Shown here piece by piece: positions 5,605-49,654 of a stretch of DNA of 64,000 nucleotides. The translations under genes and the position numbers were made by a program. The stretch covers positions 249,619 to 313,618 of the forward strand of contig JACPKU010000006.1 of the NCBI GenBank assembly GCA_016186915.1, in the 5' to 3' direction. The notes under the pieces were generated by a model, which did no database searches, was not told the DNA's origin, and saw only the letters and a list, made by a program, of their open reading frames with translations. Numbering within the stretch: position 1 is the stretch's first letter; each line of letters opens with the position of its first letter. Source of the stretch: Candidatus Doudnabacteria bacterium (GTDB lineage Bacteria > Patescibacteriota > Doudnabacteria > UBA920 > O2-02-FULL-48-8).

Positions 5605-5741
5605 AATTCCTGATGCATATTACTTGGCTTTAATTATACCATAAATCTTCAGTATCACCAAAAAAACGAGATAATATTAATATAAAAGATAATAATATGT
5701 GGCGCTATTGATGTTGATGTTAGTTGATGTTATTTTAGAAT

Positions 5742-5768
5742 ACAATTATCCCGATCGGGATTTTTATA
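5742..5768. repeat. 27-bp direct repeat DR-A1 (ACAATTATCCCGATCGGGATTTTTATA) with 14-bp perfect palindrome core ATCCCGATCGGGAT
   Basis: Identical copy at 6357-6383; lies 6 nt downstream of the stop of gene 5775..6353. Confidence 0.9.
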
Positions 5769-5774
5769 ATCGGA

Positions 5775-6353
5775 CTAAACCTTTCTGAGGTTAAATTTTT
5801 CTAATAAATCCTTTTGAATATCAATGTTTTCAGCTATAATCATTCTGACAAATGATCTGACTTCATAAATCTCCTTTAAGAAATCGAGCTCGTCTTCGCA
5901 GGGATAAGGGTACACCCAAACACTCTTTTGAATGGAGGTGAATCCAAGTTCTTTCAGCTTACCTCTAAAAAATTTTCTTGCTGCGCTAAATTTCTCTGGA
6001 ACGTCAAAAATAACCACCCTCCACTTACCATCCCATCGCCTTGGCTTACTTATCACCATTTCATCTAAATTATAACTTAAAAGTCTTTGATGACCATTTT
6101 TTGTTACCTCAACTATTGTTTTTCCCGCATGATTGGACACAGAGATCAGATTCTGCTTTTCAAGATTTCGGAAAGATTGTTCAATTTGCCGGCGATTATA
6201 TTTCTTGAGTCTCTGAAATTCAAATTTACCTAAGCCAAGTTCTTCTGAAAAAATCATTACGCCTAAGGGGCCAGCAACCGGAATAGCTAACATCCCGGCC
6301 GTTGCCACTATTTTTAATATCGTCTTGGCGATTTCTGACCTTTTGGCCTTCAT
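5775..6353 (-). CDS. protein with hydrophobic N-terminus, winged-helix-like middle and Cas2/VapD-like C-terminal domain (paralog A)
   Basis: N-terminal hydrophobic helix ILKIVATAGMLAIPVAGPLGVMIF. C-terminal KWRVVIFDVPEK...GKLKELGFTSIQKSVWVYPY fits the Cas2 beta1-Asp pattern and the R..L...G..vQ.SVF pattern. About 45% identical to ORF 13662..14228. Confidence 0.55.
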   Translation of the reverse strand: MKAKRSEIAKTILKIVATAGMLAIPVAGPLGVMIFSEELGLGKFEFQRLKKYNRRQIEQSFRNLEKQNLISVSNHAGKTIVEVTKNGHQRLLSYNLDEMVISKPRRWDGKWRVVIFDVPEKFSAARKFFRGKLKELGFTSIQKSVWVYPYPCEDELDFLKEIYEVRSFVRMIIAENIDIQKDLLEKFNLRKV

Positions 6354-6356
6354 ATT

Positions 6357-6383
6357 ACAATTATCCCGATCGGGATTTTTATA
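6357..6383. repeat. 27-bp direct repeat DR-A2, identical to DR-A1
   Basis: Lies 3 nt upstream of the ATG of gene 5775..6353. On the minus strand it reads TATAAAAATCCCGATCGGGATAATTGT aat ATG. Confidence 0.9.
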
Positions 6384-6389
6384 TTATAG

Positions 6390-6416
6390 ATCGCTGTACA
6401 AGCGATCTATAAATCT
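6390..6416. terminator. 11-bp-stem hairpin TATAGATCGCT-GTACA-AGCGATCTATA downstream of greA
   Basis: Perfect stem seen in the sequence. It sits between the greA stop and DR-A2, and T/A runs flank it. Confidence 0.4.
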
Positions 6417-11986: not shown

Positions 11987-13225
11987 TTATAAGCTCTCGG
12001 AAAGATCCTTTATTTTTACTAATTTTGTTTTATCGCTTCCTCGTTGTTTGGTTTCGACCGAGTCAGACTGCAATGTCTTATCAGAAACCAATACGCGGGT
12101 GGGGATCCCGATCAAATCGCTATCTGCAAATTTACTCCCTGCGCTTACTTCTCTCTCATCGTATAGTACCTGAGTGTTCGTCTCAAGTAAAGCTTTGTAT
12201 ATTTTGTCCGCGGGTGTTTGATTTTTCGAGATATTGATAAGATGGATATCGAAAGGAGCAATGGCCTTCGGCCAGATCATCCCTTGCTCATCATGACTGA
12301 CTTCCACCACCGCTCCCATAAGCCTGCCCAGACCAATACCGTAACTGCCCATAATCACCGGCTGTTCCCTGCCTGTCTCGTCTTTTACTGTAAGACCCAA
12401 GGCTTGGGAATACTTAGTTCCCAGTGGAAAAATATTCCCCACTTCAATGGCTTTCTTTTCTTTAAGCTTGGTTTTATCTAAGCCCAGCTTTTTTAAATTT
12501 TCTTCGGTATAGACTTCTTTATTTATGGCCAGCTTCTTTTTTTCATCGACATAAATTACGTCCTCGCCCGAGTCAGTAACAGTCTGAAACTCGTCGGTAA
12601 GCCCGGTAGTAAAAGATCCGCCCGCGGCGGCGGTGCGAAATGTTCTATCCCCCAAACCCACGCGCTCGAAAATTTTAAGATAGGCGCCGGCGCACAATTC
12701 ATAAAATTCCCTAAATTCTTTTTGGGTTTTACTGAAGGAATAAAGATCCTTCATCAAAAACTCTCGGCCTCTTAAAATCCCGCTTTTGGCGCGCAACTCA
12801 TTTCTAAATTTCGTTTGAAATTGGTAAATATAGATCGGTAAATCTTTATAGGAACTTACATAATGGGTAAGCAAAAAAGTAAGCGGCTCTTCATGCGTAT
12901 TGGCAATGCCGACGTCTGAGCCGTTGGCTAACTTGGTCTTAAACCAATTATCCACCAGCTTGTCGTCCCACCGGTTGGTTTTTCCCCAAACCTCCTTATC
13001 CTGCAGCGTGGTCATGAGAACTTCCTGTCCGCCGATCGCATTCATTTCTTCTCGGATGATCTGTTCAATTTTTTTCAACACCATCAAGCCAAGCGGCAAG
13101 TACTCGTACACGCCAGCCATCACTTTATGGATAAAGCCGGCGCGCGTCAAAAGCCGGGCATTGGTGGCCACTTCGTCCTTTGGCGCTTGTTTTAAAACTT
13201 TGGTAAATAATTGCGACTGCTTCAT
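11987..13225 (-). CDS. proS: prolyl-tRNA synthetase
   Basis: Class II core with LLTRAGFIHKVMAGVYEYLPLG; 412 aa. Confidence 0.8.
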   Translation of the reverse strand: MKQSQLFTKVLKQAPKDEVATNARLLTRAGFIHKVMAGVYEYLPLGLMVLKKIEQIIREEMNAIGGQEVLMTTLQDKEVWGKTNRWDDKLVDNWFKTKLANGSDVGIANTHEEPLTFLLTHYVSSYKDLPIYIYQFQTKFRNELRAKSGILRGREFLMKDLYSFSKTQKEFREFYELCAGAYLKIFERVGLGDRTFRTAAAGGSFTTGLTDEFQTVTDSGEDVIYVDEKKKLAINKEVYTEENLKKLGLDKTKLKEKKAIEVGNIFPLGTKYSQALGLTVKDETGREQPVIMGSYGIGLGRLMGAVVEVSHDEQGMIWPKAIAPFDIHLINISKNQTPADKIYKALLETNTQVLYDEREVSAGSKFADSDLIGIPTRVLVSDKTLQSDSVETKQRGSDKTKLVKIKDLSESL

Positions 13226-13277
13226 TTGCTTTATTTCAGAGATGAAATATTAATATCTCAATCTATTATACCTTCTC

Positions 13278-13305
13278 TTGACAAAATGCGCAAAAAAAGT
13301 ATTAT
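13278..13305 (+). promoter_or_regulatory. sigma70-like promoter TTGACA-N16-TATTAT
   Basis: -35 at 13278-13283 and -10 at 13300-13305. Confidence 0.5.
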
Positions 13306-13311
13306 ATTATT

Positions 13312-13556
13312 TTAAAGCTGGCACCGACCACCCTACCAGCGAAGTGGCAGAGTGCTTTGCTTGCGAAGCGCAGCAAGAGCGCGAGGCAGCGGCCAGATTC
13401 ACTGAGGCGGCATTGGATGTAGACCAAGCTGTTCGGCAACGAGCAGGTGAAATGCCCAGCGATGCAATGGAACGGACGCAAGAGCGCGATCCGTAGCTAC
13501 GAAAACCCGGGGAGCGTAAAGATTTTATATCCTTCGCTCCCCACACCCTTTTTTTC
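13312..13556 (+). ncRNA. candidate GC-rich sRNA (about 245 nt) with its own promoter and intrinsic terminator; identity unknown
   Basis: About 58% GC against about 42% background. Terminator GGGGAGCG-loop-CGCTCCCC plus T7 at 13509-13555. Internal repeat GCAAGAGCGCGA occurs twice. The overlapping 72-aa ORF has no RBS and its ATG lies within the -35. Confidence 0.4.
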
Positions 13557-13627
13557 TAAAGGACTTTTTTTATTTTTTTATTTTAAAGCTCCCCTGCAAC
13601 CACGCTCAGCCCTCTTGATCTTTTCAC

Positions 13628-13648
13628 GCGATCGCTGAAAAAGGTCAA
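13628..13648. repeat. direct repeat DR-B1 GCGATCGCTGAAAAAGGTCAA (GCGATCGC palindromic core)
   Basis: 18/21 identity with 14294-14314; lies 13 nt downstream of the stop of gene 13662..14228. Confidence 0.8.
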
Positions 13649-13661
13649 CAGATCCAGTGAC

Positions 13662-14228
13662 TCAAAGCTCAAATAACCTAACTAAGTCCTTTTGAATATC
13701 AATCTTTTGCACTGTCAATATTCTAATATAGGATCTCACTTCATAAAGCTCACCGATAAAATCAACTTCATCTTCACAGGAATAGGGATAAATCCAAACA
13801 CTTTTCTGCAATTTATAAAACCCTAGCTCTTTTAGTTTATTACGCAGACACTCCCTCCCCATCTTATATTTTTCGGGAATATCAAAAATTACCACACGCC
13901 ATTTACGATCCCATTTCCAGGGCTTTTTGATTCGCATGTCTTCAAGTTTGTATTTCAATACTTTATTTTGTCCGTTCTTTGTAAGTCCTACCACGGTTGT
14001 GTCACCATTTTGTGATACGCCAATCAATCTTTGCTTCTCTATTCTCCTTAAAGAATCATAGACCTTCCGTCTGCCCACTCTTGGGAGACCAAGTTCGTCG
14101 GCAATCACCATAAATGTCAATGGCCCTGCAACAGGAATTGCCAACACTCCGGCTGCGGCGAGAGTTAGCAAGACGGTTTTAGTGATCTTTAGTCTTCGTT
14201 TTGTTTTTTCAGTGTTCAATTTCTTCAT
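13662..14228 (-). CDS. protein with hydrophobic N-terminus, winged-helix-like middle and Cas2/VapD-like C-terminal domain (paralog B)
   Basis: Same architecture as 5775..6353. WRVVIFDIPEKY...NKLKELGFYKLQKSVWIYPYSCEDEVDF. Confidence 0.55.
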   Translation of the reverse strand: MKKLNTEKTKRRLKITKTVLLTLAAAGVLAIPVAGPLTFMVIADELGLPRVGRRKVYDSLRRIEKQRLIGVSQNGDTTVVGLTKNGQNKVLKYKLEDMRIKKPWKWDRKWRVVIFDIPEKYKMGRECLRNKLKELGFYKLQKSVWIYPYSCEDEVDFIGELYEVRSYIRILTVQKIDIQKDLVRLFEL

Positions 14229-14293
14229 AGTTCAATTTCTTCATAATCTTCGGGTAACTTTATCTCCGGATTACTTTTATTGATCATTTACTG

Positions 14294-14314
14294 CGATCGC
14301 TTAAAATAGTCAAT
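14294..14314. repeat. direct repeat DR-B2 GCGATCGCTTAAAATAGTCAA
   Basis: Lies about 65 nt upstream of the start of gene 13662..14228. Confidence 0.8.
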
Positions 14315-14355: not shown

Positions 14356-15471
14356 TTAAATAAACAAATTCTTCACTCTTTCTATTATATCAAACCGGCC
14401 GAAGTCTTTGACCGTAACCAAAACCATAAGCAATAACAGCAGGACAAAGCCAACCGTATTGGCCACTTGCTCAATCTTGGCTCTCATTTTCTTGCCTCGA
14501 ACCTTTTCGATTATCAAAAATAAAATTCTTCCGCCGTCCAGGGCTGGAAACGGTATAGCATTAATAATTGCCAAATTCACTGAAAGCACGGCCGTAAATT
14601 GGACTAAATAAATAAATCCAAGTTGCGCCACATCGCGAGTCAGCACGGCAATCCCCACCGGTCCGGCCAAATCAGCGCCCACCCCCTGTCCTGCAAACAA
14701 CCTCGATATGATTACGCCAAAAGCGGAAAGAATGCTCAACAGTAGATTAAACGTTGCCACTAGGCCGCGTGGCAGAGTCTCATACCACGGATAAGCCACT
14801 CTGGCCACTGTGGATACAGTGACGCCAATTGGTCCTTCGTCTTCAGGATGGTCTTCTCTTGGAATCAATGTCCGGTCAAATTCTTCGCCGCCTCGCTTTA
14901 TAGTGTAGAGGGTTTCAAGTCCGGCATTATTTTTAGCTAAAATCGCGGTTTCCTCAAGCGTGTCAATCTCCTCGCCGTTAATTGCCAGCACACTGTCCCC
15001 AACTCGCAGTCCCGCCTGATCAGCAGGTGAATCCGAAGCTATCTCCACCACTGAAACATGAACTTCACGAACCTTAGCAGAATCAGAAAGCTCTGCAGGG
15101 TCTCCGATCACGGTGGGCAGCCCCAGTCCCAGCCCTAAAGAAATTAACACCCAAGCCAGAATAAAATTCATTGTCACGCCAGCAACCAAAACCATAAAAC
15201 GCGAGCCGAATCGTTTATTGCCGAAACTTCTCGGATTATCAGAATCCGAACCGTCCTCACCCACGATTTTTACGAATCCCCCAAGCGGTATCCAGTTAAG
15301 CGAATAAACCGTACCTCCTTTTTTAAATCCAAACAGGCGTGGAGGAAAGCCAAACCCAAACTCCTCTACTTCCATCCCGGCCCGCTTGGCCATGACAAAA
15401 TGTCCCAGCTCGTGCACAAACACGAGCAGGCCTAAAATCAGGATAAAAATTATTATTGTGAGAATAATCAT
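14356..15471 (-). CDS. rseP: RIP metalloprotease RseP (site-2 protease)
   Basis: HELGH zinc motif, PDZ domain and LDG motif; 371 aa. Confidence 0.85.
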   Translation of the reverse strand: MIILTIIIFILILGLLVFVHELGHFVMAKRAGMEVEEFGFGFPPRLFGFKKGGTVYSLNWIPLGGFVKIVGEDGSDSDNPRSFGNKRFGSRFMVLVAGVTMNFILAWVLISLGLGLGLPTVIGDPAELSDSAKVREVHVSVVEIASDSPADQAGLRVGDSVLAINGEEIDTLEETAILAKNNAGLETLYTIKRGGEEFDRTLIPREDHPEDEGPIGVTVSTVARVAYPWYETLPRGLVATFNLLLSILSAFGVIISRLFAGQGVGADLAGPVGIAVLTRDVAQLGFIYLVQFTAVLSVNLAIINAIPFPALDGGRILFLIIEKVRGKKMRAKIEQVANTVGFVLLLLLMVLVTVKDFGRFDIIERVKNLFI

Positions 15472-36740: not shown

Positions 36741-36754
36741 ATCCCTTTTCTCCA

Positions 36755-36782
36755 CATTCATACACGACTGTATGAATGTATT
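36755..36782. repeat. 28-bp perfect palindrome CATTCATACA-CGAC-TGTATGAATG(TATT), copy 2
   Basis: Identical copies at 1-28, 37283-37310 and 49569-49595. Its last T plus the next A form the stop codon of the YerC-like gene. Confidence 0.9.
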
Positions 36783-37272
36783 AACCTTCTAAGGTTCTTT
36801 TTGCAGAACGTTGTTTCAGTTTCTTTCTGATAAAACGGTTTGCCGCTGGAACTCCTTCGGTGACTAAATTTGCCAAAAATGTTTCGGCCGGAGCTTTTCG
36901 GCGCACCCTTCTTTCTAAAATTGCTTGTCTTTCTTCGCGCTTCCCTTGGTATTTATGTTCCAGATCTTGTAACTTAGAGTGTACCTTTCTCAATCCATCG
37001 CCATGAATCACGAGAATATTACTGACATTATTAATAGTTCTGGAAGTAACCCTCAAAGCATTTATTATTTCTTCATAGGTTTGACCTTGAAGTAGTCGTC
37101 GCGCAATTTCTAATCTTTTAGCGAACATTTTGTATTCCGTATGTGTAAACAAATCTTTAAACAGCAACCTGATATCCTCCTTAGAATCCATCAGAGTAAA
37201 TGCGGCCCATAAATTGTTCACATAGTGACCAAAATGCTCGGGATCTAAATGTAGTCTTGAAAGTTTTGTCAT
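36781..37272 (-). CDS. YerC/YecD (TrpR-like) family HTH protein with basic C-terminal tail
   Basis: LFTHTEYKMFAKRLEIARRLLQGQTYEEIINALRVTSRTINNVSNILVIHGDG matches the YerC pattern. Likely start is MTKLS. Confidence 0.6.
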   Translation of the reverse strand: MTKLSRLHLDPEHFGHYVNNLWAAFTLMDSKEDIRLLFKDLFTHTEYKMFAKRLEIARRLLQGQTYEEIINALRVTSRTINNVSNILVIHGDGLRKVHSKLQDLEHKYQGKREERQAILERRVRRKAPAETFLANLVTEGVPAANRFIRKKLKQRSAKRTLEG

Positions 37273-37282
37273 TTTTTTTTCA

Positions 37283-37310
37283 CATTCATACACGACTGTA
37301 TGAATGTATT
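37283..37310. repeat. 28-bp perfect palindrome, copy 3, about 10 nt upstream of the YerC-like start
   Basis: Seen in the sequence. Confidence 0.9.
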
Positions 37311-49397: not shown

Positions 49398-49568
49398 CCG
49401 ACGGGTGGTCTTCGGCGGTGAGTGAGGTTCTGACAAAGAATCTCACTCATTTTTTTTAAAATATATCTCCTTACAACCCCCAGCGAGGGTTTTGGTTTAC
49501 CCGCCGGACTTTCGGGTGCCGATCATTCGACCGGACAAGTGTCTCGAAACGAGACTCGGACTTACATA

Positions 49569-49595
49569 CATTCATACACGACTGTATGAATGTAT
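49569..49595. repeat. 28-bp palindrome, copy 4 (27/28), intergenic
   Basis: Seen in the sequence; about 60 bp upstream of the -35 of ORF 49690. Confidence 0.9.
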
Positions 49596-49654
49596 GGCAA
49601 ATCCCAACCCCCATATTTGCAGGCAACACAAGCAACAATACACAATACTTCTTT

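Follow-up and report, generated by a model that had tools for sequence, protein, structure and literature searches.

Palindromic sites around mini-PaaX genes in a Doudnabacteria genome: candidate operators of an autoregulated repressor

Two genes enclosed by palindromic sites

The DNA analyzed here is a 64-kb window (the whole stretch, at its full length) from a Candidatus Doudnabacteria bacterium, a member of the Candidate Phyla Radiation (CPR), and the element under study is a small unit within it, cassette B, in which a gene for a short PaaX-like protein (mini-PaaX) lies between rseP and proS and is enclosed by two copies of a near-palindromic site. A second unit of the same type, cassette A, carries a paralogous gene, and the neighbors of the two cassettes are rseP, proS, greA, and lysS (Table 1). 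The two proteins, taken in a preliminary description of this DNA to be about 45% identical, are closer than that, with 51.6% identity by tblastn and 55% in a MAFFT alignment.

Two 21-mers had been described as direct repeats around gene B, and both were found, at 13628-13648 and 14293-14313, with 18/21 positions identical. The repeats are direct, but 21 bp is not their true length: the 21-mers cover just the right-hand side of a longer repeat (13615-13648 versus 14280-14313, 27/34 identical), each copy of which is itself an imperfect palindrome around GCGATCGC, and the actual unit is a palindrome of 36 bp in three parts. Read along the gene strand, the upstream site is TTGACTATTTTAAGCGA followed by TCGCAGTAAATGATCAA, with TTGACT and GATCAA as its outer boxes; it is centered 68 bp 5' of the start codon, the downstream copy 30 bp past the stop codon, and the position and tripartite layout of the upstream copy agree with the family profile. 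A degenerate 34-bp pattern derived from the two copies occurs at two places in the 64 kb, both at cassette B, against 0 expected from shuffles, while the bare octamer GCGATCGC, with four occurrences against 0.96 expected, is weak evidence on its own. When the 250 bp 5' of each gene were compared with the 250 bp 3' of it, using mismatched loci as the null (mean score 9.1, 95th percentile 11, 99th percentile 14), cassette B scored 13, a match that is borderline alone and that the family context makes secure. The start codon of gene B is spanned by a 16-bp tandem duplication at 14214-14245 (two copies of gttcaatttcttcata), which creates an out-of-frame upstream ATG at 14244 and an 11-codon open reading frame (ORF) that overlaps the real start.

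Cassette A is bracketed by an exact 28-bp repeat centered on ATCCCGATCGGGAT, with CCGATCGG as its core. The upstream copy is centered 16 nt 5' of the ATG and carries GATAAT at +5..+10, a leaderless-like layout; the downstream copy is centered 20 bp past the stop codon and 150 bp ahead of the lysS start. Neither the A-type nor the B-type site was found elsewhere in the 64-kb window, each being present only at its own gene.

Table 1. Positions of the two cassettes, their sites, and the genes flanking cassette B, in window coordinates
Feature	Position	Strand	Basis
Cassette B gene, 188-aa mini-PaaX, NCBI HYW51_02825	13662..14228	-	ORF list, Pfam PaaX_M
Upstream site B, 36-bp near-palindrome, core GCGATCGC at 14293-14300	14279..14314	.	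Sequence, family profile
Downstream site B, second copy, core GCGATCGC at 13628-13635	13614..13649	.	Sequence
Cassette A gene, 192-aa paralog, NCBI HYW51_02785	5775..6353	-	tblastn, MAFFT, Pfam PaaX_M 8e-22
Upstream site A, core CCGATCGG at 6366-6373 inside ATCCCGATCGGGAT	6352..6387	.	Sequence
Downstream site A, identical 28-bp copy, core at 5751-5758	5737..5772	.	Sequence
rseP	14356-15471	-	Neighbor of cassette B
proS	11987-13225	-	Neighbor of cassette B

Layout, site anatomy, and protein fold across the family

The window was compared with 80 loci of relatives (named here by L-numbers, which denote homologous loci or contigs) from species-representative genomes, nearly all of them CPR, and 78 of these loci were usable for two-site counts. 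The repeat-gene-repeat unit recurs widely. After centering on the dyad, 64/78 loci from other CPR genomes are bracketed by two good palindromic sites, and in 55/78 the best segment shared between the upstream and downstream sides exceeds the 99th percentile of the null, many of the matches being exact over 30-40 bp. This shared segment is the palindrome itself, and many copies are perfect palindromes of 30-48 bp. The sites are centered at a median of 49 bp 5' of the start and 39.5 bp 3' of the stop, lie 581-880 bp apart within a locus, and number nearly always exactly two within 3 kb on either side of the gene.

The downstream copy is part of the unit rather than of the following gene's control region, because it is equally frequent with co-directional (36/44 loci) and convergent (27/33) neighbors, and its general role as an operator of the following gene was rejected on the same ground. 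Moreover, its distance to a co-directional next gene is broadly distributed (median 132 bp, range 41-564 bp). No neighbor gene is conserved family-wide in the 80 loci, where diverse housekeeping genes flank the unit and 117/158 are singletons; a link to aminoacyl-tRNA synthetases, suggested by proS, lysS, and glyS nearby, does not generalize across loci. Within a Moranbacteria group, a gene for a TrmB-family regulator (Pfam TrmB 5.9e-15) often has its 3' end beside a palindrome copy, lying upstream of the cassette in L034, L040, L068, L069, L083, and L105 and downstream of it in L023, and in L109 such a gene stands beside a solo site without a mini-PaaX gene. Its recurrence in this group only led us to reject it as a family-wide partner.

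A symmetry profile was built from 128 sites, with positions counted from the dyad. Positions 1-4 form a conserved core, G-C-[G/T/A]-A on one side and T-..-G-C on the other (GC-NNNN-GC), where symmetry is 0.94-0.98 except at position 2 (0.79). A 5-bp spacer follows (positions 5-9; symmetry 0.58-0.68), which is the part most different between the two copies of a locus, and then a 9-bp outer box (positions 10-18) whose symmetry is again high (0.77-0.89) and whose sequence varies by locus; beyond position 19, the signal is that of the background. A hairpin stem would need pairing throughout, whereas constrained zones split by free spacers are the pattern expected from protein contacts, and the unpaired spacers therefore fit contacts on duplex DNA and not a stem.

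Protein B matches Pfam PaaX_M (PF20803, a Cas2-like domain) over residues 105-179 with an E-value of 4.7e-23 (81.5 bits against a cut-off of 24), and protein A does so at 8e-22. In an AlphaFold 2 (AF2) model, residues 4-82 of B form a winged helix (helix-strand-helix-helix-wing), and a Foldseek comparison of this model with the PDB gave full-length fold matches only to E. coli PaaX (8A39, 183 aligned columns), Rv0674 (3KFW), and a Jannaschia PaaX homolog (3L09), each half separately matching winged helix-turn-helix (wHTH) regulators and Cas2. In a profile comparison with hhalign, residues 48-150 of B align to residues 49-148 of the 316-residue E. coli PaaX. Within the PDB, the kinship emerged from fold comparison only, a profile sequence search having returned nothing significant; the Pfam PaaX_N model does not match B, and the sole N-terminal sequence match is a weak one to TrmB (E 0.12). 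There is likewise no Pfam match to the PaaX_C effector domain, and protein B ends at residue 188, directly after the Cas2-like domain.

These proteins stand outside PaaX proper, as they lack the effector domain and the paa context and score far below the cut-off of the PaaX equivalog (TIGR02277, 30.7 bits versus 264.55). They also stand outside Cas2, with no cas1 or array and a score just below the Cas2 cut-off (TIGR01573, 23.0 versus 24.5 bits, with a match confined to positions 2-44 of the 96-position model). The family nevertheless conserves the Cas2 signature FDIPE...LQKSVW, with an invariant D116, where E. coli PaaX has SEGLD...LAPSLM. A link to defense systems was dismissed, since PADLOC gave only weak matches to its Cas2 models (E ~2e-5), and so was a link to phages, with no PHROGs match and a single weak, N-terminally truncated homolog on a viral contig.

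The N-terminal segment, previously called a transmembrane span, is indeed hydrophobic, with 19-residue Kyte-Doolittle maxima above 1.6 in 33/36 members, the other three lacking this hydrophobicity. It is doubtful that the segment crosses a membrane, because the AF2 model makes it the first two helices and the first strand of the winged helix and because a single span would place the DNA-binding domains outside the cell, the topology that the basic N-terminus preceding such a span would imply. The family comprises about 1,228 clusters at 50% identity (E<=1e-30), nearly all in CPR genomes and often with several paralogs per genome. We found no published description of a mini-PaaX family with this self-bracketing layout in relation to PaaX, Cas2-like proteins, CPR, or the Pfam accessions.

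It had been proposed that the paralogous protein and its flanking palindrome diverged together, and the comparative data support this, through the counts given above, the paralog-specific sites, and the concerted change among orthologs. Paralogs within one genome carry different palindromes, as do A and B in the window and the two cassettes of L088 (5985-6723 and 12699-13500), which lie 6 kb apart and share the outer box TAGTCA but differ in their cores (GCATATGC versus CCACGTGG), a pair suggesting that the core can set paralog specificity. Among orthologs, both copies of the site carry the same lineage-specific changes, genome by genome: the sites of cassette B follow TTGAC...GCGATCGC...GATCAA, those of L001, L112, and L121 read GTTAACAT-N4-TGCTATCGCCTAAAATGTTAAC, and in L122 (63% identical to B) the left halves of the two copies are identical at 17/17 positions, yet unlike those of the orthologs. 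Furthermore, the recognition helix is the most variable structured part of the protein, with a mean pairwise identity of 24% compared with 58% in the Cas2-like domain.

Cassette B does sit in the rseP-proS adjacency, as first described, but this is no recent interruption, the unit being fixed at that position across Doudnabacteria. Both flanking genes are present in the window, in L112, in L121, and in the same-species contigs L118-L120; L001 has rseP upstream and unrelated genes downstream, and L123 and L124 have proS downstream, with rseP not identified upstream. Protein identity among orthologs at this position falls as low as 55-67%, and no locus with both flanks has lost either site.

Candidate operators and rival explanations

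From the comparative sequence evidence, each palindrome is probably the binding site of the protein encoded beside it. More specifically, we give a probability of roughly 0.55 to the reading of the two sites as cognate operators through which a PaaX-type repressor without an effector domain regulates its own gene. Such a repressor would consist of the N-terminal winged helix and a Cas2-like dimerization domain, without a ligand-binding domain, and its dimer would cover the site with the paired Cas2-like domains at the core and the two winged helices, about 28 bp from each other, on the left and right outer boxes. The upstream copy, overlapping or abutting the promoter or the 5' end, would let the protein shut off its own synthesis. 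The downstream copy, past the stop codon, may be a second anchor that closes a repression loop of ~650 bp, or a roadblock to transcription passing into or out of the unit, or, at some loci, a second promoter-operator for the next gene (proS for B, lysS for A); the role of this second copy is the least secure part of the proposal.

In its proposed function, the unit is closest to a PaaX-type repressor bound to a wide, palindromic operator. PaaX likewise begins with a winged helix followed by the Cas2-like PaaX_M domain, and in E. coli and Pseudomonas it is an autoregulated, phenylacetyl-CoA-responsive repressor, much as autoregulation is proposed here. The E. coli PaaX operator, TGATTC-N27-GAATCA (PMC9493321), consists of widely spaced inverted half-sites, comparable with the spacing of the candidate outer boxes. 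Unlike PaaX, mini-PaaX lacks the C-terminal phenylacetyl-CoA-binding domain and nearby paa genes, has very hydrophobic N-terminal helices, and is restricted to CPR bacteria, where a small genome holds several paralogs; in addition, the GC-NNNN-GC core has not been described for PaaX, and the sites stand on both sides of the gene. In having two operator copies a few hundred bp apart, one of them at the promoter, the unit also resembles repressors that loop DNA (LacI O1-O2, GalR OE-OI, DeoR, ScoC), although here the second candidate operator lies beyond the stop codon, so that the gene is enclosed, and no helical phasing is seen.

Promoter signals point in the same direction for the upstream copy. 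Hexamers resembling a -10 box are enriched at +24..+38 relative to the dyad of the upstream site, and only toward the gene; on this evidence the upstream copy appears tied to the promoter of the gene. At upstream site B, TTGACT-18-TAAATG on the gene strand may be a weak promoter-like arrangement, with the core within its spacer. In A, L019, L013, and L122, the -10 element lies inside the right half-site and the ATG only 16-19 nt from the dyad, a layout implying, as far as sequence can tell, leaderless or near-leaderless mRNAs. In L019, the palindrome at about 2950-2985 holds the promoter TTGACA-16-TATAAT, and the downstream copies in such loci are equally promoter-like. The idea that the whole site is in general a sigma-70 promoter was discarded, as it fits few loci only (L019, L013, and L026).

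Several points weigh against a plain autoregulatory circuit. Promoter overlap is heterogeneous across loci, and a recognizable sigma-70-like promoter occurs in ~20% of sites compared with 12% of position-shuffled palindromes. In partial Mantel tests, divergence of the outer boxes correlates with that of the wHTH when the Cas2-like domain is controlled for (p about 0.01), and divergence of the core with that of the Cas2-like domain when the wHTH is controlled for (partial r 0.33, p about 0.003), but these correlations are weak and confounded by shared ancestry, and we take them only as consistent with the proposed division between domains. Site-to-site distances lack the helical phasing that might be expected of a loop (Rayleigh p 0.05-0.5), though this matters little at 650 bp. 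Furthermore, the repressor would have no obvious output, having no effector domain and no further sites in the 64 kb, and an operator directly past the stop codon is unusual for ordinary regulators. Lastly, the copying of a whole unit, seen in L023 and L033, and the AT-rich genes also fit a selfish element.

That last possibility, the main rival although we consider it unlikely, is of a portable cassette whose palindromes are its ends or duplicated target sites. The winged helix would recognize the sites and the Cas2-like metal-binding domain would nick or cleave them; the unit would then spread by excision and insertion, or by homing into solo sites through repair from the cassette, and autoregulation would follow as a side effect of binding the ends, as it does in many insertion sequences. 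Support comes from L023 and L033 (2816-3599 in both), two contigs of one Moraniibacteriota bin that share a segment of exactly 784 bp at 97% identity. The segment begins ~15 bp to the left of the upstream palindrome and stops ~4 bp to the right of the downstream palindrome, the flanks are unrelated, and the ORF in L033 is truncated (117 aa); the unit can therefore be copied whole. The downstream palindrome of L033 is a hybrid of two L023 palindrome variants, with one difference per half. The unit is also unchanged whatever its neighbors and present as several paralogs per genome, the gene has a GC content below that of its flanks in 78/82 loci, the close B relative L122 sits in a different context, and, at loci with an asymmetric core, both copies mostly point the same way. 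The retained Cas2 signature with its invariant D116 points the same way, and so does a scan of metagenomes, where, of 41 Moranbacteria-type sites, 23 flank a family gene, 9 lie close to the end of a contig, and 9 are solo. Every solo site is intergenic, in an unrelated region, and three separate genes that converge, a place where a promoter would not be expected.

On the other hand, the paralogs are old (35-55% identical), and the near-identical pair was seen once among ~110 loci. Cassette B has remained stable at one locus across Doudnabacteria with both sites intact, whereas insertion relics should decay, and strains with identical GreA or RseP all carry the cassettes, without presence/absence polymorphism. 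No recombinase, transposase, or Cas1 was found in or beside the unit, nor any PHROGs match, and Cas2 nucleases are not known to carry out strand transfer. On two contigs, of 788 kb and 558 kb, the exact Moran-type pattern is confined to the cassette.

The comparison with known mobile units is mixed. Repetitive extragenic palindromic (REP) sequences with their associated transposases (RAYT; together REPtrons) and IS200/IS605 elements are alike in placing a small gene between subfamily-specific palindromes in a unit of ~0.7 kb, and in having extra solo intergenic copies, often at the 3' ends of genes. Mini-PaaX, however, is not an HUH/Y1 transposase (Pfam and NCBIfam gave PaaX_M and Cas2-like matches only); REP sequences reach tens to hundreds of copies per genome against two per type in 64 kb here, where solo copies are few or none (9-18 of 41 metagenome sites, 0 on the 558- and 788-kb contigs), and the symmetry pattern points to recognition of duplex and not of hairpin. 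Integron attC cassettes and Acinetobacter pdif modules are similarly short gene units bounded by two-armed imperfect palindromes in varied contexts, but they rely on a separate host or integron recombinase and one site for all, while here the site differs from paralog to paralog, without an associated recombinase.

Less probable still is an autonomous element in which the gene encodes a sequence-targeted Cas2-family nuclease that acts on the palindromes around it, of the size of CRISPR repeats, and copies itself. It might do so by cleavage and repair into solo sites, or with a 36-bp target duplication similar to the repeat duplication by Cas1-Cas2, and it would be, if true, a relative of the CRISPR adaptation protein Cas2 that lives independently of that machinery. 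Mini-PaaX shares with Cas2 the ferredoxin-like fold, the N-terminal signature, the Asp ending strand 1, and the Q-S-V motif, and in the Cas1-Cas2 integrase the central Cas2 dimer lies along ~23 bp of duplex DNA. Its repeats, like those of CRISPR, are ~36 bp long, palindromic, and present as direct copies flanking an insert. In contrast to CRISPR loci, there is no cas1, array, or leader, and two repeats 580-880 bp apart enclose a gene.

We regard it as very improbable that the palindromes act as RNA or single-stranded DNA hairpins, either terminators or stabilizers at 3' ends or processing sites for a Cas2/VapD-like RNase, even though some Cas2 and VapD proteins are RNases (PMC3506569). The many perfect palindromes of 30-48 bp would suit hairpins, as would the symmetric compensatory differences between copies in L063, L035, and L020, but a symmetric dimer on duplex DNA predicts the same changes. 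Among mismatched symmetric positions on the sense strand, G.T exceeds A.C by 118 to 80, a small excess that might suggest RNA hairpins but that strand-biased deamination can also give. The 5-bp spacers are not kept complementary, and the core is conserved in sequence beyond mere pairing. In the window, the RNA hairpins of the B sites are weak (-6.2 and, for the downstream copy, -12.4 kcal/mol; z -1.4 and -1.8), no terminator was called at either, and neither is followed by a T-run on the gene strand; the A-site hairpin with its TTTTT was called terminator-like on the + strand only, the wrong one for all neighboring genes, which lie on the - strand. A terminator was rejected for the B sites, and within the 64-kb window the sites are neither generic terminators nor abundant REP elements. 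No Rfam match was obtained over the whole window at gathering thresholds or over 13230-13660 at E<=1, and no tRNA or tmRNA genes were found; therefore, the repeats and the neighboring GC-rich element are not known RNAs.

The least probable explanation is that another host factor binds the palindromes, or that they are a generic dispersed repeat (REP-like or HIP1-like) merely adjacent to the gene, for although solo copies exist in some genomes and the octamer GCGATCGC equals HIP1 of cyanobacteria, each paralog within a genome has a different palindrome, each type lies only at its own gene in the window, the octamer is found just four times there, and exactly two copies nearly always occur near the gene.

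The family matters beyond this locus. The CPR, or Patescibacteria, form a large bacterial branch with tiny genomes, in which gene regulation is largely unstudied experimentally, and mini-PaaX may be among its main families of DNA-binding proteins. The family amounts to a self-labeled catalogue of hundreds to thousands of presumed natural protein-site pairs, which could reveal a recognition code, of the winged helix for the outer boxes and possibly of the Cas2-like dimer for the core, and could supply orthogonal repressor-operator pairs. It also raises the questions of why a regulator encloses its own gene and whether Cas2-like domains have a sequence-specific DNA role outside CRISPR.

Other elements in the window and at orthologous loci

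Between cassette B and proS, the window holds a GC-rich stretch of ~230 nt at 13278-13590 (+), convergent to the cassette, with a near-consensus promoter (TTGACA-16-TATTAT) at 13278-13305, a hairpin and T-run at about 13510-13556, and bracketing 20-bp direct repeats at 13300-13319 and 13571-13590. It has no Rfam match even at E<=1 and a fold z-score of -2.1, and could be a small RNA or the remnant of an insert. In orthologs, the gap from the downstream palindrome to proS holds unrelated GC-rich inserts, all convergent to the cassette (L112 4600-5200, L121 2738-3583, L124 1095-1704, and L001 3600-6300, compared with 13230-13660 of the window), whose ORFs are a 68-aa ORF, a 281-aa ORF, and 68-aa plus 108-aa ORFs. 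The gap beside the palindrome thus looks, from these sequences, like an insertion hotspot.

Just 5' of site A, after greA, an inverted repeat at 6385-6410 (ATAGATCGCT-gtaca-AGCGATCTAT) has arms similar to half of the B-site core (AGCGATC) and may be either the terminator of greA or a further binding site. A third site-gene-site unit, encoding an unrelated protein, was also observed: a Trp-repressor-like gene (36781-37272, - strand; Pfam Trp_repressor 1.4e-09) is bracketed by a 37-bp repeat with ACATTCATACAcgacTGTATGAATGT (36746-36782 and 37274-37310, 35/37 identical). The downstream copy of this repeat overlaps the start region of the next gene, and a third copy, 81% identical, lies at 49560-49596 in the msrB-secY intergenic region.

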